Shown here one piece after another: positions 23,255 through 45,497 of a DNA stretch of 64,000 bases. Position numbers and translations under genes: made by a program. Positions within the stretch are counted from its first letter, which is position 1. Every line of letters begins with the position of its first letter. Origin of the DNA: Candidatus Aenigmatarchaeota archaeon (GTDB taxonomy: Archaea; Aenigmatarchaeota; Aenigmatarchaeia; CG10238-14; SCSR01); contig JAWBPV010000004.1 in assembly GCA_039000425.1 (NCBI GenBank), positions 9,845-73,844 of the forward strand. Direction: 5' to 3'. Under the pieces are notes generated by a model. It had not been told where the DNA came from, ran no database searches, and was given only the letters and a program-made list of their open reading frames with translations.

Positions 23255-23298
23255 TTAAATAATTTTTTGTTTCAGAAATAGTTAAATTTCATCCTTTG

Positions 23299-28816: not shown

Positions 28817-28818
28817 AT

Positions 28819-29058
28819 GTGGAATTCGTGATTCAATTCTTGTTGTTCCTACTGTCTTTTTTGGTCTCTTATGGTTTTTTAAGGAAAGTTAAGATTTTTA
28901 ATCCTAGCGTGAACTTGATAATTTCTCTAGTAATAGCTTTTTACGTGCTGTTCGCCTCCACTTATTACCTAGAGAACGCAATCTTGATAATAGCTTATTC
29001 TTTCATCTCCCTATTGCTAATTTTTTCCGTAGCTTTATTGTACCGTTACAAAAAATAG
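28819..29058 (+). CDS. small membrane protein, family member D
   Basis: 79 aa, GTG start 3 nt after the upstream stop. MEFVIQFLLFLLSFLVSYGFLRKVKIFNPSVNLIISL matches the family motif. Confidence 0.5.
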   Translation: MEFVIQFLLFLLSFLVSYGFLRKVKIFNPSVNLIISLVIAFYVLFASTYYLENAILIIAYSFISLLLIFSVALLYRYKK

Positions 29059-29088
29059 GATTTATATTTACATTTTCAAATATAGATT

Positions 29089-30000: not shown

Positions 30001-30028
30001 TTTATTTCGGGAAAAACTAAATTAAATT

Positions 30029-32155
30029 ATGAAATTTTTTGGTTCGAGAAGTAAGAGTTTCGAAAGAAAAGGTATTTCTAAAGAGTATGTGGAATTCTTG
30101 CTCCAAGAACAAAGGTTGAAAGAACCAACAAATTGGTACGAAAAGCTTTGTAAGTTTGCAGAGAAGCTTAAAGTTAAGCCCTCGAAATCGATGGAAGAAA
30201 ATCTAAATTTCCAAATACTTTTCTCTTCGTTAAACGTTTCACCTACCGGCGTGATTTCAGCAACGATACTTGTTCTCTTACTTTCTTTTTTGCTAGTTTC
30301 CCCAATCCTTCTATTCACAACTGATTTTTTAACAACTATTTTTTTCTTGTTTATTCCGATAGGATTAGCATGGTATATTTTTACTTATCCTTCCTTCATG
30401 GCTACAGTGAACAAAGTTCAAGCAGGGGATGAAGCTATAAAGATAATACTTTACATGGTTATTTACCTAAAGTTGAATCCAAGTCTTGAAGGTGCAGTTA
30501 ATTTTGCCGTTCAACATTCCAAAGGTCCAATAACAGAAGACATAAAAAAAGCGATGTGGGACTTACAAATCGGAAAATATAAAACTGTGGAAGAGGCTTT
30601 GGGGAAGTACACGCAAAAATGGGTTTGGTGGAACGAAGATTTTGTCAGGTCTTTAAGCTTGTTATACGGCGTTCTCATAGAGCCAACAGAAAAAGGAAGA
30701 GAAGATATAATGAGGAAAGCTTTGAACTTCATACTAGAATCGACTCATGCAAAGATGAAAACTTATGTGGAAGAAATAACTTCACCACTCATGATTTTAC
30801 ACATGATGGGGTTGTTGTTGCCTGTGATCGGACTCGTGATGTTCCCAATGATTTCAATTTTCCTCCATCAACAAGTGAGTACGCCCCAATTGATAATCGG
30901 ATACGTTGTGATATTGCCTTTTATGAATTACTTCTTGATAAACAGGATATTGCATAAAAGGCCTGGAGCTTTCATGGTTCCAGACATAAGTAAACATCCG
31001 AAGCTTCCGTCAGAGGATTATTTTGAGATTAAGATCGGAAGAACTAGGTTATGGATACCAATTTTCATTTTATCCTTGTTAATAGGTTTCGTGGTGATGA
31101 TACCAGGTTTATTACATTTTGCTGATTTAATAATAAACTTGAACTTTCCAACCCCAGACCTCAACCAGAGATTGGGTTGCTCCATGCAAATCTCTCCAAG
31201 GAAATGTATACTCATGAACGAGGCTAAGATGACCCCAGGGAATTTATTGGCAACTTTTTCGATAACAGGTGGTTTTGCTGTCATGGTCATACTTTACTTT
31301 TACTTGAGAAGTTTTCAAAGGATTAAGATAAGGAATGAAATAAAGAATATAGAAGAAGAGTTCAAACTAGGTCTTTTTTCCATAGGGAATTACCTTTCTG
31401 AAGGTTATCCTATAGAAGTTGGAATCGAAAAAACTATAGAAGAATATGAAAAACTCGGTATGCAAAAAAGACCAACCTACTCTTTCTTTCAAAAACTCTA
31501 TTACAACATAAAGAATTTTGGATTAACATTCAAGAGGGCTCTTTTCGATAAAGAGCACGGTGTTATAAAATTTTACCCTTCGGTTTTGATAAACGAGATA
31601 ATGAAAATACTTTCTGATGCTTCGGAAAAAAGTTCTGTTTTATTAGGCACTGTTTCAAAAACTATAGCTAGCTATCTTGAAAGCATATACACGATAGAAG
31701 CTAGGATAAAGGAATTGTTAGCCGAAACAAGATCTGCACTTAAAGTGCAAGCTAGTTTTATAATACCCATGATAACCGGAATAGTTGGCGCTTTAGCCAT
31801 GTTCATATTGGATATGCTTAGGATATTAGCTGAAAAACTTTCGGAAATAGAGAAGATGTTAGGGATAACTATGCTCCCAGGTGAAGGAGCGAAGTCTTTC
31901 ATAGACTTGTTGGTCGGCGGCTTTGAGAACATAGTGCCGTTAACAGCACTTCAAGCTGCTATAGGTATTTACACAGTCGAAGCTGTGAGTTTATTCTCTT
32001 TGTTGTTGAGTGGAATAGAGAACGGATTCGATAAAACAGCTAGGGATTGGGAAATTTCTCAAAATTTGATAACTGCTATCGTTCTCTACGGTCTCGTTAA
32101 CTTTTTGGCTTTGATAGTTTTCTTGAACCTTGGTAAAACGATAGCTCAAACTTAG
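30029..32155 (+). CDS. second pilus platform membrane protein (FlaJ/TadC-like paralog)
   Basis: 708 aa. Shares WYEKLCKF, SPTGVIS and KGPITEDIKKAMWDLQIGK blocks with 15710-17644. Polytopic. No adjacent ATPase. Confidence 0.75.
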   Translation: MKFFGSRSKSFERKGISKEYVEFLLQEQRLKEPTNWYEKLCKFAEKLKVKPSKSMEENLNFQILFSSLNVSPTGVISATILVLLLSFLLVSPILLFTTDFLTTIFFLFIPIGLAWYIFTYPSFMATVNKVQAGDEAIKIILYMVIYLKLNPSLEGAVNFAVQHSKGPITEDIKKAMWDLQIGKYKTVEEALGKYTQKWVWWNEDFVRSLSLLYGVLIEPTEKGREDIMRKALNFILESTHAKMKTYVEEITSPLMILHMMGLLLPVIGLVMFPMISIFLHQQVSTPQLIIGYVVILPFMNYFLINRILHKRPGAFMVPDISKHPKLPSEDYFEIKIGRTRLWIPIFILSLLIGFVVMIPGLLHFADLIINLNFPTPDLNQRLGCSMQISPRKCILMNEAKMTPGNLLATFSITGGFAVMVILYFYLRSFQRIKIRNEIKNIEEEFKLGLFSIGNYLSEGYPIEVGIEKTIEEYEKLGMQKRPTYSFFQKLYYNIKNFGLTFKRALFDKEHGVIKFYPSVLINEIMKILSDASEKSSVLLGTVSKTIASYLESIYTIEARIKELLAETRSALKVQASFIIPMITGIVGALAMFILDMLRILAEKLSEIEKMLGITMLPGEGAKSFIDLLVGGFENIVPLTALQAAIGIYTVEAVSLFSLLLSGIENGFDKTARDWEISQNLITAIVLYGLVNFLALIVFLNLGKTIAQT

Positions 32156-32163
32156 GTGGAAAA

Positions 32164-32553
32164 ATGGAAGTTGGTAAGATGTTGACTTATCTCATGTTCA
32201 TTTTAATTCCTATAGTAGCTATGCTTGTTTACATTTCAATTTCAAGCAAACTTTTTCCAGAATGTAGGGAAAAAATAACCGGAAGTAAATTTTCAATTCT
32301 AGGTTATTTATCAAAATGTGTTGAATATTGTTGGTCAAAACACGATTTCGGTGGAGATGTTTATTCGGACGATTGTTTTTTGATCGAAGTGAATCCAACA
32401 GATAAAATAGAAAAAAATGAAATTGAGAAATTTTTAGGAAGAAACGTTAAAGTTTATTTCAACACTTTAGAAGCCAATTCAATTCAAAAGCTTAAGATAA
32501 GGTACAATTCAACCGGAAAAGAAATAAGTTTGATTTTAGTAGAAATTCAATAG
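32164..32553 (+). CDS. small N-terminally anchored protein, CW...C[FY] family
   Basis: 129 aa. LTYLMFILIPIVAMLVYISI helix, then CVEYCWSKHDFGGDVYSDDCFLIEV. Confidence 0.55.
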   Translation: MEVGKMLTYLMFILIPIVAMLVYISISSKLFPECREKITGSKFSILGYLSKCVEYCWSKHDFGGDVYSDDCFLIEVNPTDKIEKNEIEKFLGRNVKVYFNTLEANSIQKLKIRYNSTGKEISLILVEIQ

Positions 32554-32584
32554 CTATTTCTTGAAAGAAAGGATAAATAAAATT

Positions 32585-33079
32585 ATGAAAGGAATCGCTA
32601 TTTCCACTATAGCTTTATTTCTGATAGCAATAGCTTCAATAGTCGTTCTCATATCCTTCGTTGGAACAAATCTACCAGCAGCTTTGAAAGAACTCTATTG
32701 CTCCCTATTTCAAGGTATAGCTGGTTTTTTACCTTTACCAGAATATATGAAATCATCCCCACCAAGTTTTTGTAAATCTACACAAATCCAAAAAGTTTTT
32801 TATATAGAAGCTTCAGATCCCGAAAGGATATCTTTTGAGATAGCCAGCCATGTTTTGGCTTGCTGGGAGATCACAGGTAAGATAGGAGTTGATCAGAACA
32901 CGAACTGCTACGAGATTGTTATAAAAAGGATAAACGGTATCGTTGATGAAGATAGCGTTAAATCAAATTTACCAAAAGATTACAAGGGAATAATGAAATG
33001 GGAGGCAGGGGAAATAACAACTCCAAAATCCATAGGTATTTTTTACAATTCAACCAGCAAGTTGATAACGGTGATTTGA
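32585..33079 (+). CDS. pilin-like protein, CW...C[FY] family
   Basis: ATG at 32585 gives MKGIAISTIALFLIAIASIVVLISF. Ectodomain has SHVLACWEITGKIGVDQNTNCYEIVI. Confidence 0.6.
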   Translation: MKGIAISTIALFLIAIASIVVLISFVGTNLPAALKELYCSLFQGIAGFLPLPEYMKSSPPSFCKSTQIQKVFYIEASDPERISFEIASHVLACWEITGKIGVDQNTNCYEIVIKRINGIVDEDSVKSNLPKDYKGIMKWEAGEITTPKSIGIFYNSTSKLITVI

Positions 33080-33080
33080 A

Positions 33081-33482
33081 ATGAAAGGAATGGCTTTGGA
33101 ATATGTGTTTAAAATGTTTTTGTATGTTGTTGTGGTTATCGTTGTGATAAGTTTGATAATACATTTCAGAGAAGAGATATCTTCTTCCTTAAAACTTTGT
33201 GAATATTTGTCGATTGGTTGCGGAGAAGAAAAATGTGAAACGATTCAAGCAAGCGAAGATAGGTTGGAAGAAAAAGTGATAAAGAAATATTGTGATCTAT
33301 GCTGGAGGAAAACTGGAAGTAAAGATTATGGAAAAGATTGTTTTTGTTATATAGTGAGCGGAAGCTTTTTTGTAAACAATTACAACTTACCCGAATACTG
33401 TGAAATGGAGTGTAGAAAAGATGCTACCAGTTTGATCTTTATCTACAACAGCTTAATGAAGAAAGTTTTCGTACAGTGTTGA
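33081..33482 (+). CDS. pilin-like protein, Cys-rich, CW...C[FY] family
   Basis: 133 aa. MKGMALEYVFKMFLYVVVVIVVISLI, then YCDLCWRKTGSKDYGKDCFCYIVSG. Confidence 0.6.
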   Translation: MKGMALEYVFKMFLYVVVVIVVISLIIHFREEISSSLKLCEYLSIGCGEEKCETIQASEDRLEEKVIKKYCDLCWRKTGSKDYGKDCFCYIVSGSFFVNNYNLPEYCEMECRKDATSLIFIYNSLMKKVFVQC

Positions 33483-33483
33483 T

Positions 33484-33930
33484 ATGAAAGGGTTGGCTTT
33501 AGATTATGTTTTTGTGATGATGGTTGGCGTTGTAGTTATTTGCGTGGCCGTAGCTATTATAGCAGGCTTTTTAAAACTTGAATTCATATTTAAACCTAAA
33601 TGGATAACTGAAGTCAAATACGCTTGTTCCAAATACAACAACAGCAAAATAAATCTTGAAAATCTAAAAGTTGTGATCTATGGTTTTTTAACAGGTCAGT
33701 GCAACGATTTTTATTCACAGCTAACCCAAGACATAAAATTCGAAGATGTTAAAAGAATAGTGGGAGAAATTGACGGTAAGGTGAATGTGATTTTGTTGAG
33801 AGAGTGTGAATTCTTAAAAACCAACACACATTCAGTTTACGTTTGTTGTGATAAGTTTGAGTCTGGAGAAAGTATTAATATAAAAAGAAGAGAAATTAAA
33901 AATAGTGATGTCTTGGTTTGTAAGAAGTGA
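33484..33930 (+). CDS. pilin-like protein
   Basis: 148 aa. MKGLALDYVFVMMVGVVVICVAVAII. Starts 1 nt after the upstream stop. Confidence 0.6.
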   Translation: MKGLALDYVFVMMVGVVVICVAVAIIAGFLKLEFIFKPKWITEVKYACSKYNNSKINLENLKVVIYGFLTGQCNDFYSQLTQDIKFEDVKRIVGEIDGKVNVILLRECEFLKTNTHSVYVCCDKFESGESINIKRREIKNSDVLVCKK

Positions 33931-34831
33931 AATCGGTAGGAAAGGTATAAATGCTTTAGAAATAGTTTTCGCCATGTTCATCTTGATAGTTGTAACGCTG
34001 GTCGTGATAAGGCTTTTTACAACGACAGTTACAAGAGAAACTTTACCGAACATAGAAGATTTCAGGAAAACTTACAATTACGATAAAGAAAAAAGTAAAT
34101 GTAACAATTTGTGCTCTTCTTACCAAAGTGAAAATTGTGAGTTGAGTGCAGCAGTTAACTATTGCCAGCAAAAGATATCAATAGACATAGATGGGAATTT
34201 CAGGACAAACGAGAGGAATCATGGCGGCTTGATAGCGGGTGTGCCTTACTGCGAAGATGGCCTTTATTGTTTTCATATAACTTCTTGTGAGTGTGGTTTT
34301 GTACTCGATGCTAAAACATGTTTAGAGATCATGAAAGAGTATTATGTAAACCAATTGGGTTTATCTGAAGATGAAGCGAAACAGATAATAGTCAACAAAA
34401 TAACTCCAGGCACATGCGACCGAAACCCTGCAAGATGGGGTGTTAAATTTTATCAAGGCTATAAGCCGATAAAACCAAGTGATGAAGAATGTAGAAGGTA
34501 TAGATTGGATCCGGGTTGCAATTTGCCGTCTGATTGGTGGTGGTGGAAAGCTGGTTATGGTGATATAGCACAAGAAATTGGAGTCTTGAAAGGTGGGATA
34601 TCCCCATATCCCTTGTTTTACTGTATTAGTGGAGATAGAAAAATTGAATGCAAATGGGTTGGTTGTCCTTTAGGAAAAATTCATATTTTCTTGAGTGATG
34701 GTAGTGTTTATGAAGATGAGGATAAGCCAATTGGTGATGTTATTTTTGGTCCGCTTAACAAAGGAAGTTACTCAGCAGTTCTTGTTTGTGGTGGAAAAAC
34801 GGCAAGTTCCGGATTAATTCTCATTGATTAA
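33908..34831 (+). CDS. pilin-like protein with Cys-rich ectodomain
   Basis: 307 aa from ATG 33908. ...SEIGRKGINALEIVFAMFILIVVTLVVIRLF (RKG + helix), followed by many Cys. Confidence 0.6.
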   Translation: MSWFVRSEIGRKGINALEIVFAMFILIVVTLVVIRLFTTTVTRETLPNIEDFRKTYNYDKEKSKCNNLCSSYQSENCELSAAVNYCQQKISIDIDGNFRTNERNHGGLIAGVPYCEDGLYCFHITSCECGFVLDAKTCLEIMKEYYVNQLGLSEDEAKQIIVNKITPGTCDRNPARWGVKFYQGYKPIKPSDEECRRYRLDPGCNLPSDWWWWKAGYGDIAQEIGVLKGGISPYPLFYCISGDRKIECKWVGCPLGKIHIFLSDGSVYEDEDKPIGDVIFGPLNKGSYSAVLVCGGKTASSGLILID

Positions 34832-34835
34832 TGTT

Positions 34836-34852
34836 TTAATTTTTAAAATTAA
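34836..34852 (+). promoter_or_regulatory. AT-only 17-nt palindrome / candidate TATA region upstream of the 1015-aa gene
   Basis: ttaatttt-t-aaaattaa read directly, lying 11-27 nt upstream of ATG 34863. AT-rich background makes chance occurrence plausible. Confidence 0.25.
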
Positions 34853-34862
34853 ATAATTAATT

Positions 34863-37800
34863 ATGGATAGTTGGTGTAAATTTTCTATTTTCTCATTGTT
34901 GACAATATTAGTACTTATAACTATTCCAAACACTGGCTTTGGAGACTGTAGACTTTTTTACATATCTAACTCAGATTGTTCTTATTTTTATTATGTACCG
35001 TCTGGACCTGGGTATGCTGCTGCTTTATGTACTATTAATAAAAAACCCGTAGAAAGTTATAGAAATTATCAGTATACTCAGTGTAGTGAAACTTATGCAT
35101 CTGGAAAAGCAAACGCGTGTCCACCTATTTCTCATTCATATTTTAATGGAAAACCATGTTATATACACAAGGATTGTTTTGTAGGTTATTGTACATACAA
35201 AGAATATGAAGGCAGATGGTCTGCAAGCACAAAAGAGTGTGTGAAATGTGAAGGTAGGATGAAGCGATATGTGTATGGAAATGCTGAAAAAATTTGTGTT
35301 GATTGTTCAGGAAATATTCTTTGTTATCATGGAACGTATGTATGTGAATCTGCTTGTGGTGCTCCATCGGAATGTGACGATAAAAAACCTGGTGATCCTA
35401 TTCCAGGTGGTTATTGTGATAGTAATTGCAATCCTGTGTTAACATGTGATAGTTCTAGCTATAATTCTTGTAGTTCTGCTTACAATTTTGGAAGTACCTC
35501 TGGAACAAAAACCGATATGTGTGGGGCAGATCAATATTACAAAGTTTCAACACCACCCGGAAAGAAATGTGATATAAAATGGACTGTAACCCCAGATGGC
35601 AATGCTGATTATGATCTATACGTGAAATGGTCTTCGGTTTGTCCATCAACTTCAAACTACGATTGTATATCTAGAGCCGGAACTGGAAGACAAGATAGCT
35701 GTTCAAAAAACGAACACATAGGGGAAACTTATGCTCTGGTTCATAAATATGGTGGAAGCGGAGCTTATACTGTTTCTGTTTCCATTAGTAATTGTGTTGA
35801 TGTTGTAACTACCACAACTTCTTCAACCACCACCTCAACCACAACAATTCCGGATTGCCGTAAGTGTGAAATTCGAAACTTACAATGTCCGTCTACAGTT
35901 AACCCAGGTGAAGATTTTAACATAAAATTCGAGTTCTACGGTACAGGACCAACATACAAATACGAGCACAGAAGTTTATGGTTAGGTGGAAATAGGATAG
36001 GTTGTCATTATGGTGTGGATCATCCGGATTGTCAATGGCACCTAGATAGCTTCGTAGTGACAGCACCATCAACTCCAGGAACTTACACTTACACTGTAAA
36101 ATGTTACGGATACTCTTCTTCATCAGAAAGTTATTGTAGCCCAACTTACCAAGATGATTACAAATCTTGCACAGTTACTGTGCGAGAAACCACTACAACA
36201 ACCTCCACAACATCCACAACAACCACCATACCAGAAGATGACCCATGTGACAATTCTGGAACATGGAAGAAATATGGAATTTATTGTTGCGAAGGAGGAG
36301 ATTGTTCAAATGATGAATCAAAAGTAAGAGGAGTGTGTATAGATAAAAGTACTTACGAGCAAAACAAAGATAAGTTTGATTTAGTTAGAGCTGGTTCAAA
36401 CGAACATTGTGTTAAATGTAAAAATAGTGATTGTTGCCATGAATTCAGAAGCTTTTGTTTTGATTATTCTTCAAGCTCACCAACTGGTTGTATAGGTCGC
36501 AGAGGAATTGTAACATCAACTTGTGCTGACAAAAATGGAAACACGTGTGATTTATTATCAGCCCTTAAAGGGTGTGATTTAAAAGAAGAAATGTCTAAGC
36601 TTGGTCAATTATATTGCGCTTTTTGTCGAAATCCTCCGACAACCACAACAACCCAACCTACCACATCTACCACAACAACCCAACCTACCACATCTACCAC
36701 AACAACCACCATACCAGAAGATGACCCATGTGACAATTCTGGAACATGGAAGAAAGCTTCAATTTATTGTTATGAAGGTGATGTTAGAGAAGAGAATAAG
36801 AGAGGTTTTTGCTTGGATAAGAGTGTAGCAGAACAGAGGAGTGATTTGGAAATCGTTAGATATGGTGCTCAACAACATTGTGTTAAATGTAAAGCAAATA
36901 GTTGTTGTTTTGATTTAAGAAGTTTTTGTTTCGAATACAACGCAACAGAACCTACAGGCTGTAGTTATCCAGGTAGCGTAACAAGCAGGTGTGGAGATGA
37001 AGGTGGTAATGTTTGTTCACATCCTTCGCAAGTTGGGGAAAATTGTGTGATCAAAGAGAATAAAGATAAACTTGGTTTATGGTATTGCTATGCATGTCCT
37101 TCTGCCAAGAAAATAGAATGTGAAGAATGTTATGCTAGGTCAGAATGTAAATGTGAGTTGAAAACAACTTGCGATAATGGTTTTTGGATTTTACAGAATC
37201 AACAAGGCAAGCCTTTGGATTCTATGGTGAATTCTCCAATTCCACCATACCAAATAGATTTTGAGCCGAATTCAAGTGGAAAAATATTGATAACTGCTAT
37301 CTGCTTCAAAAATACACAACCCCAAACTTTTCAACATATTTTAGAAGTTAAAGAACCTTTCTTGGAATGTGACGAAGATTGTAGAACTAGAGAGCCTTGC
37401 GAATGTAGAGTTAACGGATGTGAAGATGGATGGTTTAGCGCAGTTTTAGGAACAACTTTATTGAAATGGAAGGAAAAAATAAATAAGACAAGATTCAAGA
37501 CGTCCTTCATTTCAGAGAAGCCTGGTGTTGTTGAAGTTACTGTTCAATGTATTAGCCCGCAAACATATGAAGAAAAACAAGTTGTTGTAGGAGGAACGAT
37601 TCCAACGAGAAAATTCCAAGCGTTTAACTTCAGAGCAGAAAAGCAGGATAATACTATTAAAATAAAATTAGATTATTCCAACAATCTTGCTGAAGATGTG
37701 GTAATAGTTTTCACCTTAAGTAAAGAAGGAAAAACTATCAACAAAAAATATACAGCTATGATAGGCGATGGAACAGCGAGCTTATCTTTGGATTGCACCG

Positions 37801-37910: not shown

Positions 37911-38428
37911 TGAAAAAATTTTTGTTGATCGTTTTAACAGTATTTTTTTTATTGCAGAGTGTAACATCTGCTGAAATAGTTTGTTCGAAATGTTTCGTTG
38001 GAGATTGTTATTGCACTGTAACAGATTGCGATTCTGGTATAGTAGATATCTTTTATTCCCCTTGTTCGATGAACCCGAGCTATGAATTCACTTTTTCGAA
38101 CGGATACTTCAAGTGGAAGCCTGAAGTTGAAAATATTCATTATTTGAAAGTTTTGTGTTCGGATGGAGAAACTCAAAGTGAATGTACACCAATCGTTGTT
38201 GAAGCATCTCGTGAGAAAACAACAACCACAACAGCAGAAACAACAATTCCAGCGAAAACAACCACAACTTTAGAAATGGAAGAAGAAACCGAAGGGCCGG
38301 ATTACTTTTTGATAGTTTTGATAGTTATGCTCATCCTCATACTCCTCTTCGCAGCTTATTACTTCTTCTTTATGAAGAAGAAAGGAAAAACTTATGAAGA
38401 TCTTTACAAGAAGTGGGGGAGAAGATAA
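37910..38428 (+). CDS. secreted Cys-framed module protein with Thr linker and C-terminal TM anchor
   Basis: ATG 37910 overlaps the upstream stop (TGATG). MKKFLLIVLTVFFLLQSVTSA signal, CSKCFVGDCYCTVTDCDSG module, TTTTTAETTIPAKTTTT linker, C-terminal helix FLIVLIVMLILILLFAAYYFFF. Confidence 0.7.
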   Translation: MKKFLLIVLTVFFLLQSVTSAEIVCSKCFVGDCYCTVTDCDSGIVDIFYSPCSMNPSYEFTFSNGYFKWKPEVENIHYLKVLCSDGETQSECTPIVVEASREKTTTTTAETTIPAKTTTTLEMEEETEGPDYFLIVLIVMLILILLFAAYYFFFMKKKGKTYEDLYKKWGRR

Positions 38429-38443
38429 TCGATTTTAATAACA

Positions 38444-38451
38444 TTTATAAA
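38444..38451 (+). promoter_or_regulatory. candidate TATA box upstream of alba
   Basis: TTTATAAA, about 62 nt upstream of ATG 38513. Consistent with an archaeal TATA consensus, assuming a leadered transcript. Confidence 0.35.
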
Positions 38452-38499
38452 TCTTCCTAATCATATTTCTTATAATTAAAGCAGATAGCAGAACATAAA

Positions 38500-38506
38500 G
38501 GAGGTG
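38500..38506 (+). promoter_or_regulatory. Shine-Dalgarno sequence of alba
   Basis: GGAGGTG, 6 nt upstream of ATG 38513. Confidence 0.55.
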
Positions 38507-38512
38507 GATTGA

Positions 38513-38800
38513 ATGGCAGAAAAAGCAGGAAATCAAGACAACGTGATATTCGTTGGTAAAAAACCTTCTATGGCTTACGTGCTAGGGGTGATAACTCAAT
38601 TCAACTCTGGTAAAAAAGAAGTTCATATAAAAGCTAGGGGGAGAGCTATATCAAGAGCAGTAGACGTTGCACAGATAGTTACCAGGAGGTTCATAACAGA
38701 TGCAAAGATAAAGAACATAGAAATAGGAACAGAAGAAAAAGAGCTTGAAGATAAGAGTAAGATAAACGTTTCCACGATAACCATAACGCTTGAGAGGTGA
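38513..38800 (+). CDS. albA: DNA/RNA-binding protein Alba
   Basis: 95 aa. [51 protein letters not shown] is a typical Alba sequence. Confidence 0.9.
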
Positions 38801-38806
38801 CTCCCC

Positions 38807-38822
38807 CTTTTTTATTTTTATT
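38807..38822 (+). terminator. T-rich tract after alba
   Basis: cttttttatttttatt lies immediately after the stop codon. Oligo-T tracts serve as archaeal terminators. Confidence 0.4.
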
Positions 38823-38858
38823 GACTGAAATTTAAGTTAGCGAAATCAATTTCTATTT

Positions 38859-39380
38859 ATGCCTGAATTGTGGGTTTACGTTTTTGGAGGTATAGTTATC
38901 GCTATACTTGCCATGTTGGTTGGGTATAACTTACTTTCCAACATGATCAACTATTCTCAAAAGCAAGATGCTCTAGCTCAATTTTCAGACCTCTGCTACA
39001 ACATTAACACGGTTTGCGTTCAAGAGTTGGGAAATTATTTGATAAAGAAATACAGCTTTCCGTCAACGGTGAGGGTAGTTTATGCTACGCAAGATGTTTT
39101 CAACCCATTACCCAAAGTTTTAGATAAAATAAAAAACGGAGAAATTAGTTTTGGAAAAAGCGTTTGCTTACAATTTAAAGATGAAAAATACTTGAGGTGT
39201 TGTCCAGAGCCACCTAAACAATTTCTATGTAGAATTCAAATGCCACACCTAGGAGTTTTACCTGAGCAAGAAGACATTTTCGTCGCAGTGAACAAGATTT
39301 TGGGAAGATCGCCGAGAAGAGATTATGAAATCTTGATAAACAAGACTTCTGGTGATGAAGTTTTAGTTACAACCATTTGA
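38859..39380 (+). CDS. N-terminally anchored Cys-containing protein
   Basis: 173 aa. MPELWVYVFGGIVIAILAMLVGYNLL helix. Ectodomain has 7 Cys by eye. Confidence 0.55.
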   Translation: MPELWVYVFGGIVIAILAMLVGYNLLSNMINYSQKQDALAQFSDLCYNINTVCVQELGNYLIKKYSFPSTVRVVYATQDVFNPLPKVLDKIKNGEISFGKSVCLQFKDEKYLRCCPEPPKQFLCRIQMPHLGVLPEQEDIFVAVNKILGRSPRRDYEILINKTSGDEVLVTTI

Positions 39381-40687
39381 TTTTTTTATCAATTTTTCAA
39401 ATAATATTTGTGAAAGCTATAGCAACAGAAATTATTTTGACTATCGGAGTTTTAATTGCGGTTGGCATCACGGCTTTTCAATTGAGGGGAATTTACATAG
39501 CTCAACAACAGCTTGGAGAAGAAGAAGTTATTTTATCTTTCATCAAAGATTTGGAATCGATAGTTGATAGAGCTATAGGAACAACAGGAGATGCCGCTTT
39601 TATTTATTACCCAATAATTGAGAAATATAGGGTTGAAATTGAGAATAATGTTGTTAAAGCTTTGGATAAAATTTCTGGGAAACAAGCGAGCTTTTCAAAA
39701 TTAGCTCCAGAAATCGTTGAAAATTCTTTTGAAGATTGTGAAAAGATTTTTGTTTTGAAGAAAGGAAGAAAAATAGCTTTGATGTGTAGGTGCTTGGATT
39801 TGGGAGAATATTGTACTGATTCCATACTTTGTTGCTCTGGTTATTGTAATCACACGAGCTTAAAATGTGAAGAAATGCCTATTTGCTCAGAAGATAGGAT
39901 TTGCCCAGGTGCACCGGAGGCAAAAAAAGATTCTTTAGGAAGGGATTGTTGTCCTTCAGAAGCACCGATTTGTACTAATGGACATTGTTGCCCTGTGGAT
40001 AAACCAAAATGGTGTGAAAAACCTAAAGATGGCAGTGCACCGAGATGTATGGATAAAGTGGAATATGATAACAATTGTAAAAGAGGTTTTCCTATAATTT
40101 ATATACCTTTAAATTATAAGGAAGACGAGTTCAATCTTTTCAAATCAGGTGCGGAAAGAAATTTTTTTGATTATGTAACAAAATATGCTCCGAGTAAGGA
40201 ATGTCGTAATCCTTATTCGGTTTTTCAACCCTATTATTTAGATCCAAGTAAATGCACAATAAAATGTTCTAATCCATGTGAAGATTGCCTATCTGTTACT
40301 TTCAATTGTTTTATTAATAATTACCAAGAGGTTATAAACGATGCAAATGATTGGATGGTGATTGGTATATGTAAAGATTTTTCTTGTACTGCTGGAGGTA
40401 AATGGTGTGGTTGCTCAGTACTATTCAGTAGATTCTCAGTTGATAACATTGGTTGTGGAAGTGATTCAGCCGCCCATGAAATGGGCCATTCTGTAGGGTT
40501 CAATCATGTTGATGGTATTTGTGACAACCCCGCAGGCGCTTGTCAAGGGATTAATGCAGGAGATTGTAATGATCCTAAAAAATATGAAGATCTTATGACA
40601 TATTGTCGCACACGTTTTAGATATGGAAACATAGCTTATGAGTATTTAAAAAATACGATATTTAAAGATTATTTAGTTGGTTGTTGA
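39377..40687 (+). CDS. membrane-anchored (pilin-like?) Cys-knot + metzincin-type zinc metalloprotease
   Basis: HEMGHSVGFNH (HExxHxxGxxH) at 40475-40507. Dense Cys region CRCLDLGEYCTDSILCCSGYCNH...CCPSEAPICTNGHCCP. TTG 39377 (TTGA overlap) or in-frame GTG 39410, which gives MKAIATEIILTIGVLIAV. Confidence 0.7.
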   Translation: MIFLSIFQIIFVKAIATEIILTIGVLIAVGITAFQLRGIYIAQQQLGEEEVILSFIKDLESIVDRAIGTTGDAAFIYYPIIEKYRVEIENNVVKALDKISGKQASFSKLAPEIVENSFEDCEKIFVLKKGRKIALMCRCLDLGEYCTDSILCCSGYCNHTSLKCEEMPICSEDRICPGAPEAKKDSLGRDCCPSEAPICTNGHCCPVDKPKWCEKPKDGSAPRCMDKVEYDNNCKRGFPIIYIPLNYKEDEFNLFKSGAERNFFDYVTKYAPSKECRNPYSVFQPYYLDPSKCTIKCSNPCEDCLSVTFNCFINNYQEVINDANDWMVIGICKDFSCTAGGKWCGCSVLFSRFSVDNIGCGSDSAAHEMGHSVGFNHVDGICDNPAGACQGINAGDCNDPKKYEDLMTYCRTRFRYGNIAYEYLKNTIFKDYLVGC

Positions 40688-40688
40688 A

Positions 40689-41336
40689 ATGAAAAAGTTA
40701 TTAATGTTAATAATATTTTTTGCATTTGTTGTACTATTGACGTTAGCTAGTGCACAAACAAATAAAATAATTGTCTTGGAGTTGTTAATATTTCAAAATG
40801 ATACAGTTATTTTAAAAAGTTTTATAATAACTGATGGGGTACCAGATAAATTTTTCCCACAGGAGATAAACCCATCTTACTTACTTAAAATAATTTCTTT
40901 TGACGGACAAGTTGTTTTCCAAGAAAATTTAAGAATAAGTTTTTTAGCTTACCCAACAAGTTTTTCAGAGAACGTCTCAGATACAGTGATAAATTTGGAG
41001 AAAGTAAATTTATATTTAAAGCTCCCATTTTTTGAGACTGCTGAAAAGATTCAAATATATCATGATTCAAAACTGATATTTGATTTTAAAATACCGTGGT
41101 GTAACAATAATGGTTTATGTGAAATTGAAAAAAATGAAAATTATATAAACTGCTTTAATGATTGTCATTGTGGTAACAGTATATGTGACAAATTTGCGGG
41201 AGAAAGTTTTTCGAACTGTCCTCAAGATTGTCCACATGAAGAGATAAAAACACCAATCTACATTTATTTAACTATTATTGGTTTTATTGTCTTAATCGTC
41301 ATTCTTCTCGTTTACAAGATAAGGTTGGTGAGATGA
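40689..41336 (+). CDS. secreted beta-rich protein with Cys-rich stalk and C-terminal TM anchor
   Basis: ATG 40689 gives MKKLLMLIIFFAFVVLLTLASAQ (Sec signal). CNNNGLCE...CFNDCHCGNSICD...CPQDC. C-terminal helix IYIYLTIIGFIVLIVILLVY. Confidence 0.6.
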   Translation: MKKLLMLIIFFAFVVLLTLASAQTNKIIVLELLIFQNDTVILKSFIITDGVPDKFFPQEINPSYLLKIISFDGQVVFQENLRISFLAYPTSFSENVSDTVINLEKVNLYLKLPFFETAEKIQIYHDSKLIFDFKIPWCNNNGLCEIEKNENYINCFNDCHCGNSICDKFAGESFSNCPQDCPHEEIKTPIYIYLTIIGFIVLIVILLVYKIRLVR

Positions 41337-42727
41337 AAGGACAAACAAGTATTTTGATCAAAGGAATTTACCTTATCTTGATCTTAGTAAGTATAGCGAT
41401 CTTCATAAACAGAATTTTTTACTCCAATTTGACTTCAGCTCAACAAGAAAGAAATTTAATGCTCAAGAATAGGGCAAACAGGTTGCTGGATGTTCTTGCA
41501 GGCGACGTAAATTGTTTAGGTTATGAAGAAAAAGGCAGTGTGGAAAAAAAGGTTATAGAATTGAGTTCTCACAGGATCTTGGAAAAGAAAAAACTCGATG
41601 ATTTCTCGAAATTTAACGATATCCAGCCAGATTGTGCTAGAGATTTTGATTTTGGTTATAGGGTTGATGTGGAAACTTTTCCTTTGTACATAAGTTCAGC
41701 AGAAGTTGAAAGAAAGGGAGGGGTTTTTGGTAAGTTGTTGTCTATAATAAATGGAAAAAAAGTTGTTTTTGTTCTAGATGTATCTGGAAGTATGGGGAAT
41801 TATGGGGGTAAATGTGATGTTGATCATGATAGAGACACAAAGATCTGTTGTTTAAAGCTTTTCATGTATGGTTTCATAGAAGGAATGAGTGATGATAGTG
41901 AGATAGCTGTTATACCTTTTGGTGATGAAAGTGGGTGCAATCCGCGATTGTTATTCGATTTCACAAGATTGAATGGTTTTTCTACAAGGGAAGAGTTGAA
42001 AAAAAAGATTTCTTCACTTTCTCCGAAACATGGAACTCCGATGGCAGCAGGTTTAAAGAAGGGGTTTGAATATGCTTTTGCAAATGGTGGTGAAGCTATT
42101 GTACTTTTAACAGATGGTGTAGAAAATGAGTGCATACCACCAAATTCGATTGATGTAGCGAGAAGTTTCAAGTATACAGGAATACCAGTTTACACAGTCG
42201 CTTATGGTTCCGTAGCTGATACAGGAGTACTGCAAGAAATAGCGTCTATAAGCAATGGTCAATTCTTCGATGCTAGGATGTGTGAAGAGTTGGTTTCAAA
42301 ACCGAAAGAAAGTCTTGAAGTGGAAATTCCTCCAATGAAGTGGAGCTTTGGTGATGCAGAATTCTCGAGGAAAGAATCCTTGAGACAAAAAATTTCTGTT
42401 TCAATTCCGATAAATGTTTTAGTGGATGAAAAAACGATAATTCCTGGAAAAATGACGATAACGATTTTCGATGGTGAGTTGGAAGAATTCAGGGGTTTCT
42501 TGGATAAGAGTTGTTTAACTAACACTAACTTCAGAAAAACTTTCACTTTCCATTATCCTTTACATTTTGATTCTTCGAACAAAAAGTTGTGTCTAGAAAT
42601 TGATGGAAAAGAATTTTGTCAAAAAATTAAATGTGAAAAAAACATAAAATTCCCGAAAAAAATTTCGCCAGGAAAATATGATGTGATCATAAGAAATGAA
42701 GGTGATGAGTTAGAGGTGATGATTTGA
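41333..42727 (+). CDS. pilin-signal protein with von Willebrand factor A domain (TadG/PilY1-N-like)
   Basis: 464 aa. MKGQTSILIKGIYLILILVSIAIF. MIDAS DVSGS at 41777-41791 (VVFVLDVSGSMG), GTPMAAGL, IVLLTDGVEN. ATGA overlap upstream. Confidence 0.8.
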   Translation: MKGQTSILIKGIYLILILVSIAIFINRIFYSNLTSAQQERNLMLKNRANRLLDVLAGDVNCLGYEEKGSVEKKVIELSSHRILEKKKLDDFSKFNDIQPDCARDFDFGYRVDVETFPLYISSAEVERKGGVFGKLLSIINGKKVVFVLDVSGSMGNYGGKCDVDHDRDTKICCLKLFMYGFIEGMSDDSEIAVIPFGDESGCNPRLLFDFTRLNGFSTREELKKKISSLSPKHGTPMAAGLKKGFEYAFANGGEAIVLLTDGVENECIPPNSIDVARSFKYTGIPVYTVAYGSVADTGVLQEIASISNGQFFDARMCEELVSKPKESLEVEIPPMKWSFGDAEFSRKESLRQKISVSIPINVLVDEKTIIPGKMTITIFDGELEEFRGFLDKSCLTNTNFRKTFTFHYPLHFDSSNKKLCLEIDGKEFCQKIKCEKNIKFPKKISPGKYDVIIRNEGDELEVMI

Positions 42728-44256
42728 AAGCACAAACCATGGAACTGATGGACTTACTCATTTTGGTAGTTGGTGTATCTATCTTGATCTTAACTTCCTA
42801 TTTTTTGTTTTCTTCTAGAGTTCAGAGATCAGCAGCTATGGTATCAACACAACACAAATATGAAAGAGTGGTTGAAGCTTGTAGGAATTTCCTCTACACT
42901 AAAATTCCTAAATTTGAGAAAACTTATGGTCAATTGCTTGGCGATATGGTTGTTAATGGTGGGGAAGATGTTGTTGATTATGGAGATAAATATGGTGGAA
43001 TAAACGTAACGAAAATAATTTATGATTACTTCGATTCGCATTTTCAAAACAAGTGGAACTTAACGCTTACGGCGAGAACAGAAATTTTTCATGTTTTGTG
43101 GATACCAAATTCTGATCAAGGAAATTCTATCTCAAAAGTTTCTATAATAGATGGGAGAGAACTTGGAAGATATTACGTAGCGCCACCCAAGGTGAATGGA
43201 AATCCGTCAAGAGTTGCTATGGATAAACAAGGAAACGTTTGGGTTGGTAACCGAGGTACTAGGACTTTAGTTAAGATAGGTTTAAAAGAAAATGGTCAAT
43301 GTGTCGATAAAAATGGAGACGGAATAATAAAAACTTCAGAAGATTTGAACGGCAACGGGTTGATAGAAGATACGGAAATATTGCCTTTCGATCAAGATGA
43401 ATGTCTTCTTGCCGAAGTTTTCCTGGGAGGAAATACTCACGGAAGTTTTGGGAAGAAAGGTGTGAGAGCTGTTTGTTTCAGTGAGAAAGAGAATGTGGTT
43501 TATGCAGGGTTGTATGAAGAGAGAAAATTTTTCAAAGTTTCAAACGATGGAATAGTCTTGAAGGAATGGGATTTGGGTGGGCTCGGTGTTAATCCGTATG
43601 GTTGCTTTGTTGATAAGGACGGAATAGTCTGGATTTCAGCAGTTCATCAGAAGAAACTGGTGAAATTCGACCCTTTCAATGAAAATTTTGAAGTTATAGA
43701 TATAGGATATAAAGTTTATGGAATAGCTCCTTGCTATTCAGAAGATTGTTTAGTGATAAATTGCTACGATGATTCTAGATTGATAAAATTCAACACTTCT
43801 AACGATAAAATAATTTTCAACTTAAGGAAGCCCGAATTGGATAAAGGTAGAGGGGTTATAGTTGATGGTGAAGAAAATATATACGCTGTTTCTTCGAAAA
43901 AGAATTTGGTAGTGAAGTATGATAAAGAAGGTAATGAATTGGCGAGGAGCTCGACTTGTAGAGAACCTACAGGAGTTGGTATAGATATACTTGGAAAAAT
44001 TTGGGTTACTTGTTTAGATTCGGAAATTCAAAGGTTTGATGGAAATCTGAATTTTGAAATAGGTAGTAAGTTTGGTTCTGGCCATTACGTCTACAACTTT
44101 TTCACAAGTTACAACACACCACCGATAACTATTGGAAAAAGTTTGAGCTTTGGTTATCCGGAAGAGGTCACCGAAGAAATGACAACATTCTTCGCTCCAG
44201 TCCCGATACCAAGCTGGAGGGGTGAGGTAATCCAGCTTCATTTAAAGGTGTGGTGA
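42724..44256 (+). CDS. pilin-signal protein with six-bladed beta-propeller and tandem EF-hand loops (PilY1-C-like)
   Basis: 510 aa, TTG start in a TTGA overlap. MKAQTMELMDLLILVVGVSILIL. Six repeats of the type GNVWVGN / GIVWISA / KIWVTCL each followed by L(V/I)K(F/Y/I)(D/N). DKNGDGIIKTSEDLNGNGLIEDTE at 43306-43377. Confidence 0.75.
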   Translation: MKAQTMELMDLLILVVGVSILILTSYFLFSSRVQRSAAMVSTQHKYERVVEACRNFLYTKIPKFEKTYGQLLGDMVVNGGEDVVDYGDKYGGINVTKIIYDYFDSHFQNKWNLTLTARTEIFHVLWIPNSDQGNSISKVSIIDGRELGRYYVAPPKVNGNPSRVAMDKQGNVWVGNRGTRTLVKIGLKENGQCVDKNGDGIIKTSEDLNGNGLIEDTEILPFDQDECLLAEVFLGGNTHGSFGKKGVRAVCFSEKENVVYAGLYEERKFFKVSNDGIVLKEWDLGGLGVNPYGCFVDKDGIVWISAVHQKKLVKFDPFNENFEVIDIGYKVYGIAPCYSEDCLVINCYDDSRLIKFNTSNDKIIFNLRKPELDKGRGVIVDGEENIYAVSSKKNLVVKYDKEGNELARSSTCREPTGVGIDILGKIWVTCLDSEIQRFDGNLNFEIGSKFGSGHYVYNFFTSYNTPPITIGKSLSFGYPEEVTEEMTTFFAPVPIPSWRGEVIQLHLKVW

Positions 44257-45497
44257 TGAAATCTCAATCAAGTTTGTTGGTTTTGATTTGTCTTATCGGT
44301 ATTTCTTTAATACTTTGGATCACTTCAGCATTTTTAGCGACAACTTCATCCCAGAGGGTTGTTCAAGAAACTATATTTTCCAAAATTTCAAAATATTTGG
44401 ATTACGTGAAGGGTTTCACGAGGAATGCCCTGATATTTTCTGTTCATGCTGAAAGTAAGCGAATTGCAAGTCAAGGTGGTCAAACCAGTGATGCTGGAAT
44501 TCCAAGGAGTTGGATTTGTAATGCTGAAGTTTCACCTAGTGTTGATGAAGTTAGGTTTTTCCTTTCAGAAGAAACTAAGATGGATTTGAACAAATATTTG
44601 AAAAATTTCAAACTTCAAGACTTGCCTGTAATAAACGTAACCAATTCAACTTGTGTTGATTACGATGTTGATGAAACTTCGGTACTTTCAGGAAAGAATG
44701 ATGAAGAATTCAAAGTTGGTTGTTATGGTAGTAAGATAAACATAAGTCTTGATGAAAATTTGGTGAGTTCATCGAATGAGGTTTACGAAGGAATAGAACA
44801 AAACAGGTTTTGGTACATGTACAGGATATTCAGGGAATGGGCTCCAGTCGCTACGCAAATATTAGTCGGCGGTACGTGTAGTTGTTTATCGAAAATTTGC
44901 TCTTGTGGTAATTCTGATTATTCTGGTGGCTGTATGCCATGTGCTTCTACTTGCCCTGGATTTCAAAACTGTTTGGAAAATGTGGTTGAAAATGCTAGGA
45001 AAGTTCTACAAAATTCTTTTGATGAATATGTTAGATGCAACGCAAGGTTGATAGGTTGTTACCATGAGCTTGAACCTTGCACCGGAGTTTTTGAATGCAT
45101 CGATTGGGAAAACGCACCAGCTTGCAATAATTGCTTAAGAGAAAATGCTGGTGAGCTGTGTTCTAAGCGCATTATCATGGAAAGACCAACTGTACAAGCT
45201 AAGCCCACTTTCTCAACAAGTTTTTCCAAAAACAAGCTAAGCTCAATTTATTTCTCCGATTCATGTTCATCTAAAAAATGTAAACTTTGGTATGAAACTA
45301 AGGGCTCTATGGAAGCTGTATTTTCATGTACGGATGAAAAATACTTACTCTCTGTTTCAGGGGACAGACATTTGATGTTCAGCGTTCATGCAATGGCAAA
45401 ACTGAGGGCGATAAGATGTTATTATGAAAGACCTTGTGTCGAATCTGATGGCGATTGCGTATGTCCTCCTGGTTCTTGGTGTACTGAATGTGAATGA
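44256..45497 (+). CDS. pilin-signal protein with Cys-rich ectodomain
   Basis: ATG 44256 overlaps the upstream stop (TGATG). MKSQSSLLVLICLIGISLILWITSAF. Cys clusters such as CSCLSKICSCGNSDYSGGCMPCASTCPGFQNC. Confidence 0.65.
   Translation: MKSQSSLLVLICLIGISLILWITSAFLATTSSQRVVQETIFSKISKYLDYVKGFTRNALIFSVHAESKRIASQGGQTSDAGIPRSWICNAEVSPSVDEVRFFLSEETKMDLNKYLKNFKLQDLPVINVTNSTCVDYDVDETSVLSGKNDEEFKVGCYGSKINISLDENLVSSSNEVYEGIEQNRFWYMYRIFREWAPVATQILVGGTCSCLSKICSCGNSDYSGGCMPCASTCPGFQNCLENVVENARKVLQNSFDEYVRCNARLIGCYHELEPCTGVFECIDWENAPACNNCLRENAGELCSKRIIMERPTVQAKPTFSTSFSKNKLSSIYFSDSCSSKKCKLWYETKGSMEAVFSCTDEKYLLSVSGDRHLMFSVHAMAKLRAIRCYYERPCVESDGDCVCPPGSWCTECE

Follow-up and report, generated by a model that had tools for sequence, protein, structure and literature searches.

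A gene cluster of an Aenigmatarchaeota archaeon encoding a platform-protein paralog and predicted modular pilins with exchangeable cargo domains

The window analysed here is a 64,000-nucleotide (nt) stretch of contig JAWBPV010000004.1 (assembly GCA_039000425.1, forward-strand positions 9,845 to 73,844) from a Candidatus Aenigmatarchaeota archaeon, a hot-spring member of the DPANN archaea with a GC content of ~35%. Its subject is a gene cluster at window positions 30029 to 45497 that encodes a paralog of a type IV filament platform protein together with a series of predicted pilin-like proteins, several of which carry large binding or enzymatic domains. A first-pass annotation of the window had placed every open reading frame of this interval on the plus strand in tight packing, which was confirmed for the called genes (spacing of -40 to +84 nt), and the junctions it listed as ATGA at 41333, TGATG at 37908 and 44254, and TTGA at 42724 are present. 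Two of its boundaries required revision. Longest-frame calling probably produced the TTGA overlap at 39377, and TTG 39377 was rejected as the start of the metalloprotease gene in favour of GTG 39410 (MKAIATEIIL), because the orthologs and the public gene call P0192 start there. The co-directional run does not open at 30029 and begins already at 28298, with three small membrane-protein genes. The genes at 38859 (173 residues) and 40689 (215 residues) were also absent from the earlier description. The features of the cluster are as follows, the hyphen in an N-terminal motif standing before position +1.

30029 to 32155, +: G01, platform paralog, a 708-residue polytopic membrane protein (TadC/FlaJ/T2SSF-like; BLASTP, Pfam T2SSF), with no adjacent ATPase
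32164 to 32553, +: G02, 129-residue bitopic protein with a MEVGK plus transmembrane N-terminus, conserved in orthologs
32585 to 33079, +: G03, small pilin-like protein, MKG-IAISTIALF..., N-terminus kept in >25 orthologs
33081 to 33482, +: G04, small pilin-like protein, MKG-MALEY..., Cys-rich head (orthologs)
33484 to 33930, +: G05, small pilin-like protein, MKG-LALDY... (orthologs)
33908 to 34831, +: G06, 307-residue pilin-like protein, ..RKG-INALE (Glu at +5), Cys-rich head with 16 Cys (~20 orthologs)
34863 to 37910, +: G07, 1015-residue Sec-type secreted protein, 7.8% Cys, four Thr/Ser-rich linkers, internal repeats
37910 to 38428, +: G08, 172 residues, Sec signal, small Cys-rich domain, Thr linker, C-terminal transmembrane anchor
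38513 to 38800, +: alba, chromatin/RNA-binding protein (Pfam Alba E 7e-21)
38859 to 39380, +: G10, 173-residue bitopic protein, MPELWVYVFGG... (orthologs)
39410 to 40687, +: G11, MKA-IATEIIL N-terminus, carrier head of ~120 residues, Cys-rich linker of ~100 residues, metzincin domain (HEMGHSVGFNH)
40689 to 41336, +: G12, 215 residues, Sec signal, ectodomain, Cys-rich segment, C-terminal transmembrane anchor
41333 to 42727, +: G13, modular pilin-like protein, MKG-QTSIL..., vWA domain inserted between N- and C-terminal scaffold parts (Pfam VWA)
42724 to 44256, +: G14, pilin-like N-terminus (M)KA-QTMEL... and a six-bladed NHL/SGL-type beta-propeller (Pfam SGL, PDB sequence matches)
44256 to 45497, +: G15, 413 residues, MKS-QSSLLVL..., 70-residue N-terminal helix, Cys-rich globular domain without a recognised fold

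The cluster was compared with loci of relatives (numbered L001 to L080) taken from a scan of one genome per species, which gave 75 loci, and N-termini were compared after the orthologs of each gene in the fetched loci had been traced back to the upstream stop codon. To judge class III signals, a simple rule was run on 70 of the window's reading frames and conservation among orthologs was considered. Seventeen of the 70 frames were positive, with seven of them between 17.9 and 21.4 kb and eight between 32.5 and 45.5 kb, i.e. 15 of the 17 positives cluster in two pilus loci, which is beyond chance. The more upstream of the two, locus 1, consists of the following genes.

13479 to 15713, +: FlaI/TadA-family ATPase (Pfam T2SSE E 5e-15)
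15710 to 17644, +: locus-1 platform protein, 644 residues, in a 4-nt overlap with the ATPase stop
17957 to 21374, +: set of seven prepilin-like genes (MKAS.., MKGV.., MKGI.., MKGL..)

Within the cluster at 30029 to 45497, eight genes encode an N-terminus of the archaeal prepilin type, with Lys or Arg followed by Gly, Ala or Ser and then a hydrophobic helix, and these motifs are kept in orthologs at 25-80% identity. The patterns are MKG-IA(L/I)ST for G03, MKG-(L/I)ALEY for G05, (R/K)KG-xxALE with Glu at +5 for G06, MK(A/G)-xATE for G11, M(K/R)(G/A)-Q.S for G13, K(A/G)-Q..E for G14 and K(S/A)-QSSLL for G15. Most of the prepilin-type subunits have Glu or Asp at +4/+5, and the Gln at +1 that had been noticed in the three large closing proteins, G13 to G15, proved to be conserved across their orthologs. 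Archaeal processing sites with published experimental support are KGQ(V/L/I) for EppA substrates, with Gln at +1, and KAIS or KGIS for PibD substrates (PMC4371748), and the K-G/A motifs of the cluster match them. The rule scan and the ortholog conservation together thus predict the class III signals of a type IV filament. Of five small proteins first described as having MKG- or RKG-helix starts, this applies to the four beginning at 32585, 33081, 33484 and 33908, the 129-residue protein having the MEVGK-helix instead. G07, G08 and G12 have ordinary Sec-type signals, the latter two with C-terminal anchors. Outside both loci, a 366-residue protein at 58988 to 60088 (plus strand) starts MKSQIDEFALVLLAGLILVG, i.e. 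with a K-S-Q prepilin-like N-terminus as in G15, and has no Pfam match.

The domains borne on these N-termini could be assigned for three of the four large subunits. In G11, the zinc motif HEMGHSVGFNH is kept as HExxHxxGxx(H/D), with H and D variants, in 14 homologs, and the AlphaFold2 model (mean predicted local distance difference test score, pLDDT, of 68) comprises a helix at residues 3-59, five or six beta strands at 73-125 and an alpha/beta domain at 227-425. The C-terminal domain, modelled at pLDDT 80-90, was matched by Foldseek to ADAM-8, acutolysin A, ADAM33 and Bacteroides metallopeptidases at a probability of 0.97-1.0, and Pfam Reprolysin_3/5 matches were weak and under the cutoff (E 0.02-0.03). 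Zinc motif and predicted catalytic fold together indicate a metzincin (clan MA(M)); this part of the earlier description, a membrane-anchored metzincin, stood, and the plain membrane anchor gave way to a prepilin-type N-terminus (MKAIATE). G13 matches Pfam VWA at 56.8 bits (cutoff 23.8, E 4e-15), with the metal ion-dependent adhesion site (MIDAS) of the vWA domain intact in the alignment (DVSGS, the T of GTPMAAG and the D of LLTDG). G14 matches Pfam SGL at 29.8 bits (cutoff 26.3), and a phmmer search against PDB sequences matched the Pizza6 designer propellers as well as the sensor domain of PknD, with E values as low as 4e-14; the blade number of six is taken from these six-bladed templates. 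The earlier calls of a vWA domain, a six-bladed propeller (here of NHL type) and a metzincin therefore hold on the Pfam VWA and SGL, PDB and Foldseek matches.

G15 was modelled with confidence (pLDDT 85, predicted TM score 0.76) as an N-terminal helix at residues 3-72 followed by a Cys-rich alpha/beta domain with a beta-sheet, so that the models of G11 and G15 both have N-terminal helices of 57-70 residues and then a beta-sheet. A Foldseek search of the G15 model against PDB and BFVD gave no significant match and none to any pilin (best E 0.07 and 0.0055, TM score ~0.1); a likeness to the pilus-binding maturation proteins of single-stranded RNA phages (PDB 5mnt; BFVD), at a probability of 0.01-0.04 and a TM score of ~0.1, was set aside as probably noise. 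The G15 family comprises 29 clusters, none with a Pfam domain and every one from either an Aenigmatarchaeota archaeon or an unnamed metagenome contig. In G07, a Cys-rich module of ~150 residues beginning IPEDDPCDNSGTWKK is present twice, the copies being separated and preceded by the Thr/Ser-rich linkers at residues 316, 443, 600 and 609, and the orthologs of G07 carry Flg_new_2 in L001 and Laminin_G_3/Stig1 in L080.

Judged from the alignments, several genes of the cluster encode 'carrier' pilin modules that are conserved, and the cargo domains attached to or inserted in them differ from lineage to lineage. The cargo in the window genome is the metzincin of G11, the MIDAS vWA of G13, the NHL-type propeller of G14 and the Cys-rich domain of G15. 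Homologs of G11 have the first ~225 residues in common (helix, head and Cys-rich linker) and then diverge; for example, the protein P0151 is 84% identical to the window G11 over the N-terminal part and continues into a C25 gingipain-like domain, and further homologs carry papain (C1), GH39-like or other unassigned domains. An exhaustive HMMER scan with the G11 carrier alone returned 73 clusters, in which the carrier (module 1-123) occurs as stand-alone proteins of 125-133 residues and fused to at least eight enzyme architectures, i.e. metzincin, C25, C1, GH39, GH5, SLT+M14, SLT+M23 and SLT+reprolysin, the last in a protein annotated as Aenigmarchaeota, and to another glycosidase core. Among 13 aligned members of the G13 family, an N-terminal scaffold of ~120 residues and a C-terminal one of ~140 residues are constant, and the insert between them is a vWA domain in six, absent in six and an NHL/SGL propeller in one (L003). 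The G14 ortholog in L080 is a 156-residue pilin module without a propeller. For G11, G13 and G14, the pilin-like module therefore appears both alone and linked to a functional module foreign to pili, as is characteristic of modular pilins.

The same exchange of cargo was observed at the level of whole loci. In the groundwater relatives L022 and L080, a GH3 glycosidase (Pfam E 7e-36) is joined to an N-terminus like that of G02. The G11 slot of the L080 locus (positions 1-17137 of contig CAYJVB010000001.1), of a groundwater-type lineage, is occupied by an SLT+M14 protein; the locus also has a G13-like protein that lacks vWA, a G15 ortholog, a 1010-residue Laminin_G_3/Stig1 protein and a duplicated G10, one copy of which is lengthened to 493 residues. 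The presence of a murein-degrading set on pilin-like carriers suggests that this lineage targets a bacterium rather than an archaeon.

G01 gives a full-length BLASTP match to the locus-1 platform protein (29% identity over 669 columns, E 9e-87), and the two have the blocks WYEK(L/F)C, P(T/N)GVIS and GP..D(I/L)KK..WD in common, which bears out the earlier description of the 708-residue protein as a T2SSF/TadC/FlaJ-type paralog of that platform. Pfam T2SSF is matched by 5 of 12 G01 orthologs; its cutoff of 25.2 bits is passed by the G01-clade ortholog of L035 (27.6 bits) and, in the same region, by an ATPase-linked Micrarchaeota homolog, L076 (26.9 bits). G01 can thus be assigned to the type IV filament platforms (PilC/TadC/FlaJ, T2SSF) as a paralog of an ATPase-overlapping gene. 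The ATPase at 13479 to 15713 matches the NCBIfam models for TadA (E 4e-36) and FlaI (E 2e-35), both under the equivalog cutoffs, and is the only copy in the window: no second assembly-ATPase gene or paralog was found anywhere in the 64 kb, and none of the PilB/FlaI/TadA family lies in 28298 to 45497, in agreement with the original statement that the locus has none of its own.

This arrangement appears to be a property of a lineage rather than of one genome. The closest G01 homologs are all from Candidatus Aenigmatarchaeota, and a public contig of 3.6 kb is identical; the loci at least 33% identical to G01 come from Aenigmatarchaeota and some metagenome-assembled genomes labelled 'uncultured archaeon'. 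Across the ~30 orthologous loci no ATPase lies in the locus, and one is adjacent only in L031 (5585-12600, in the order G01 paralog, ATPase, platform 1) and L041 (7028-11953, where the G01 paralog stands beside the ATPase-platform-1 pair in a divergent arrangement). This adjacency is a genomic hint that the G01 paralog uses a locus-1-type ATPase. Loci at 25-32% identity occur in Aenigmatarchaeota, Woesearchaeota, Nanoarchaeota and Micrarchaeota and have an ATPase immediately 5' wherever the upstream sequence reaches far enough, and orthologs of platform 1 in the relatives' loci are always directly 3' of an ATPase. The ATPase-less G01 group forms one clade in a rough neighbour-joining tree without support values. 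In the L010/L050 lineage, the two loci are ~17 kb apart, similar to the window.

Where the platform is 50-80% identical, the gene order G01-G02-G03-G04-(G05)-G06 ... G10-G11-G12-G13-G14-G15 recurs, and synteny in the Aenigmatarchaeota loci bore out the expectation that these genes are co-conserved with the platform paralog. Compact complete sets were found in L010, L011 and L013; 14 genes are covered by each of the locus-tag ranges QW040_00445 to 00380 and QMD36_01410 to 01475, and by NCBI tags G11 is 9 genes and G15 13 genes away from G01 in one genome, with 13 from G01 to G15 in another. G03 is always 3' of G01/G02, G12 is kept between G11 and G13 in L001, L010, L011 and L013, and the positions of G07 and G08 vary among genomes. 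NCBIfam has no family for G01, G06, G07, G11 or G15. The alba gene, which had been counted as part of the locus, did not behave as a member: it lies within the pilus locus only in the window genome, is missing from the L001 locus, and elsewhere stays near the locus in varying positions (upstream of G01 in L009-L013, at the downstream end in L080). It is therefore regarded as a passenger outside the system, and a role as locus regulator was rejected since its position is not conserved. In the window it is flanked by the only gaps of the cluster above 50 nt, with a Shine-Dalgarno-like GGAGGTG of its own, TTTATAAA upstream and an oligo-T tract after it.

These results can be read, with a little better than even confidence, as an accessory type IV filament module of the Aenigmatarchaeota (DPANN) in which a platform paralog and cargo-bearing pilins act on host cells. 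The subunits would be inserted by Sec, and their leaders removed by a prepilin peptidase encoded elsewhere. The single FlaI/TadA-type ATPase, 14 kb upstream, would power G01 in trans, with the small pilins G03-G06 assembling into a short filament or pseudopilus and the bulky modular subunits placed at or near the tip, where there would be room for one or a few copies. The vWA domain and propeller may then bind another cell while the protease locally digests its envelope, a step that in relatives could be performed by papain, gingipain-like enzymes, glycosidases or murein hydrolases, and cargo swapping would follow the chemistry of the host envelope. Action on the envelope of another cell fits better than housekeeping because of the murein-specific SLT/M23/M14/GH3 domains in relatives and the rapid exchange of cargo. 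Attachment to, or processing of, another cell is still inferred, as it was at the outset, and gains weight from the sorts of cargo that occupy the orthologous slots; the cluster is a strong candidate, on the gene content, for the tool by which these cells grip and open hosts. The first-pass annotation had said that its proposal would fall if the N-termini were plain Sec signals or transmembrane anchors, if the genes were not co-conserved with the platform paralog, or if the 708-residue protein were not T2SSF-like, and none of these was found. A wider reading, in which an entire DPANN phylum engages its hosts with an organelle encoded by this locus, with a short filament, a dedicated platform, a borrowed sole ATPase, interchangeable carriers, cargo as a read-out of archaeal or bacterial hosts and G15 as a new tip fold, is held here as a tentative extension that may well prove too broad.

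Several observations weigh against the interpretation as a type IV filament module. Among the subunits, G02 has a conserved MEVGK-helix start and no K-G motif; G10 starts MPELW in the window genome, again with no K-G motif, its distant orthologs being prepilin-like (MKGVA.W); and G04 has MKG-xALE in close relatives and M(S/AE)-M-x-LE, lacking K-G, in distant orthologs. No Peptidase_A24 member (FlaK/PibD/EppA) was found among the polytopic window proteins scanned, nor a GxGD-type motif in a 338-residue window protein with eight transmembrane segments, and signal cleavage therefore stands as a prediction. The N-terminal carrier of G11 is modelled at low confidence, its helix and strands at pLDDT 30-60, and the confidently modelled G15 has no pilin match in Foldseek. 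G01 itself scores 16 bits against Pfam T2SSF, under the gathering cutoff, a profile of the platform family matched no solved platform structure among PDB sequences (a 15.8-bit match to a potassium-channel-like protein was judged spurious), and the two-domain internal repeat of T2SSF was not detected when the N- and C-terminal halves of the platform alignment were compared with hhalign (probability 0.9%, E 0.059). Lastly, AT-rich TATA-like elements stand upstream of 28298, 29089, 30029, 34863, 38513 and 38859, and the presence of some of them within the cluster suggests transcription in more than one unit.

The fusion of class III signals to large functional domains could also serve nutrition. 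In a display resembling the bindosome of Sulfolobus, the N-termini and the platform would do no more than anchor hydrolases and binding proteins at the surface, where they would digest environmental protein, polysaccharide and necromass for an auxotrophic cell. Sulfolobus provides a documented case of a PilB/PilC-type pair assembling large functional proteins that bear class III signals (PMC4371748), hydrolases of polymers in general (GH5 cellulase, GH39, GH3, papain and C25) are among the relatives' cargo, and the adjacent genes of adenosine monophosphate (AMP) salvage, i.e. RuBisCO III, AMP phosphorylase and ribose-1,5-bisphosphate isomerase, fit a scavenging lifestyle. However, the MIDAS vWA, the NHL propeller and the SLT+M23, SLT+M14 and GH3 proteins point to a structured target surface rather than to bulk polymers, no substrate-binding proteins or transporters were found among the locus proteins, and the ATPase scores 39.5 bits against BasE where the cutoff is 1000; this explanation is considered rather unlikely. 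The two loci of the window could alternatively be one machine, in which G01 contributes a second subunit to a heteromeric platform (cf. TadB/TadC and EpdJ/EpdK) and the cluster supplies a minor-pilin or tip complex. Many archaeal type IV pilus systems have two TadC-like genes per ATPase (PMC4858521; EpdL/EpdJ&K), the window has only one ATPase, G01 stands beside the ATPase-platform pair in L031 and L041, and in two lineages the two loci lie near each other. Against this, ATPase loci of Woesearchaeota, Nanoarchaeota and Micrarchaeota have one platform gene within +/-10 kb, G01 goes with the modular-pilin set and not with the ATPase in ~30 loci, and locus 1 has seven pilin-like genes of its own, so that a single machine seems improbable.

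A third arrangement, in which the proteins are plain membrane-anchored exoproteins held by type II signal anchors that stay uncleaved, the TadC-like protein serves another function in the membrane and the clustering reflects only the co-regulation of surface proteins, would account for the peptidase missing among the scanned window proteins, for G02 and G10 without K-G and for the ordinary Sec signals of G07, G08 and G12. It does not sit well with a Lys/Arg-Gly/Ala/Ser pair that is deeply conserved at a fixed distance from the start, together with a +1 Gln or a +4/+5 acidic residue, with the strict co-conservation with the platform paralog, with the existence of stand-alone carriers of pilin size (~125 residues), or with the identical motif in seven small proteins of the ATPase-linked locus 1, and is accordingly thought very unlikely.

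The filament-module interpretation has its closest precedents in the modular pilins of bacteria, in which a class III signal and a small pilin module carry a grafted domain, as in Streptococcus sanguinis PilB (pilin and vWA) and PilC (pilin and lectin), and for which an InterPro survey also listed pilin-peptidase fusions (Raynaud et al. 2021, PMC8179133). MIDAS vWA and peptidase cargo, a high variety of architectures and a presumed position of the modular subunits at the filament tip are common to both, and modular pilins are frequent in the ultrasmall episymbiotic members of the bacterial Candidate Phyla Radiation (PMC8179133). That survey used the bacterial motif IPR012902 and does not mention archaea, whereas the present case is archaeal. 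Further, the vWA of the window G13 is set inside the scaffold rather than appended as in bacterial modular pilins, and here four to six modular subunits occur per locus, with a platform paralog of their own, no ATPase and cargo dominated by hydrolases. The bindosome (Bas) of Sulfolobus solfataricus is similar in that large class III-signal proteins need a PilB/PilC-type pair and small pilin-like proteins for surface localisation (PMC4371748), but its cargo consists of substrate-binding proteins that serve uptake, and an ATPase, BasE, is encoded in the bas operon itself, whereas no substrate-binding domain was found in the proteins of the present locus, which has no ATPase. The Epd pili of Methanococcus maripaludis (EpdA-E, EpdJ/K/L, EppA) resemble it in KGQ-type sites with +1 Gln and +5 Glu, in two TadC-like proteins per ATPase and in pilin genes spread over several loci (PMC4371748, PMC4858521). 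They differ in that the pilins are small, both TadC genes lie together with the ATPase, and an EppA-type peptidase and pyroglutamate have been demonstrated.

The combination of a vWA domain and a beta-propeller at a filament tip is known from the PilY1/PilC adhesin of type IVa pili, carried on the minor pilins PilHIJK that prime assembly; GspHIJK act likewise in the type II secretion system, in which the pilin fold of GspK is interrupted by an inserted domain (PMC10191384, PMC8179133). PilY1 is, in contrast, one non-pilin protein with a PilY1-type propeller, while here the vWA and the NHL-type propeller are on separate proteins, each with a prepilin-like N-terminus, and neither G13 nor G14 has a Pfam match to PilY1/PilC (Neisseria_PilC / IPR008707) at E<=0.1. 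Extracellular murein-degrading SLT (murein lytic transglycosylase) proteins have been proposed to act against bacterial host walls in other DPANN archaea, the Woesearchaeota and Pacearchaeota (Castelle et al. 2021, PMC8204110); those giants, of up to 3,000 residues, are without pilin carriers or a pilus locus, whereas the SLT+M14 and SLT+M23 domains of Aenigmatarchaeota are on the G11 carrier inside the locus, and the window genome has a metzincin instead of SLT cargo. Earlier archaeal work described combinatorial sets of ATPase, TadC and pilin genes and unannotated DPANN pilins, and neither this locus nor pilin-borne enzymes (PMC4858521, PMC6393860); the only genomics paper on Aenigmarchaeota to mention pili does so in one sentence (PMC8407114), and a module of uncharacterised membrane and extracellular families specific to Aenigmarchaeota has been reported (PMC8204110). 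No earlier description of such an archaeal locus was found in the literature searched, recent work included, which agrees for archaea with the original remark that the locus maps to no described archaeal system; as a principle it is already known, because bacterial modular pilins (PMC8179133) and the Sulfolobus bindosome (PMC4371748) are precedents. What appears to be new is an archaeal, platform-paralog-linked locus of predicted modular pilins with polymorphic hydrolase cargo.

To our knowledge, little has been learned of the ways in which DPANN archaea fasten on to their hosts and break into them. No Aenigmatarchaeota cultivated with a host were reported in the literature searched. The locus offers a phylum-wide, 14-gene candidate apparatus with predicted cleavage sites, a putative metal-dependent adhesin, a putative protease and a question of platform/ATPase pairing, and the carrier with swappable cargo would extend the bacterial modular-pilin principle to Archaea. 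If the type of cargo does follow host envelope chemistry, the hosts of uncultured lineages could be predicted from genomes alone, the groundwater Aenigmatarchaeota with murein hydrolases, for example, being expected to have bacterial targets. A likely role would also be assigned to a block of the function-less families specific to Aenigmarchaeota (PMC8204110).

The genes surrounding the two loci show some further regularities. Upstream of G01 stands the following group.

28298 to 30000, +: three small polytopic membrane-protein genes (172, 79 and 303 residues; gaps of 2, 30 and 28 nt), 5' of G01

The trio possibly encodes accessory components of the cluster, its membership being uncertain. Together with genes at 11190 to 12370 (minus strand), it makes up a set of small, weakly paralogous polytopic membrane proteins without Pfam matches that flank both pilus loci. 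Genes of the 28298 to 30000 type lie 5' of G01 in L001, L007, L016, L023, L036 and L062, and homologs of the 172- and 303-residue proteins adjoin the ATPase-platform pair in Woesearchaeota, Nanoarchaeota and other Aenigmatarchaeota, and these families may belong, so far unrecognised, to the type IV filament machines of DPANN archaea. A scan for sigma-70 promoters and intrinsic terminators gave no enrichment over shuffled sequences and is inapplicable to an archaeon. Just after locus 1, at 21368 to 24132 on the minus strand, lie a gene for a 628-residue protein with about six transmembrane segments and a large Cys-containing C-terminal domain and its neighbour for a 277-residue protein that starts MRIFFILLLLIIFMSGC and is lipobox-like, both without a Pfam match.

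Directly downstream of the cluster, at 45498 to 49343 on the minus strand, are genes for AMP phosphorylase (Glycos_transf_3/PYNP_C), form III RuBisCO (E 4e-85) and an IF-2B-family ribose-1,5-bisphosphate isomerase (E 3e-61). The same trio is directly 5' of the platform paralog in L002 and L004, and the AMP-salvage neighbourhood is thus conserved but rearranged. Between RuBisCO and AMP phosphorylase, a gene at 47036 to 47317 (minus strand) encodes a 93-residue secreted Cys-rich protein without a Pfam match, and the corresponding slot in L002 and L004 is occupied by a gene for 128 or 169 residues.

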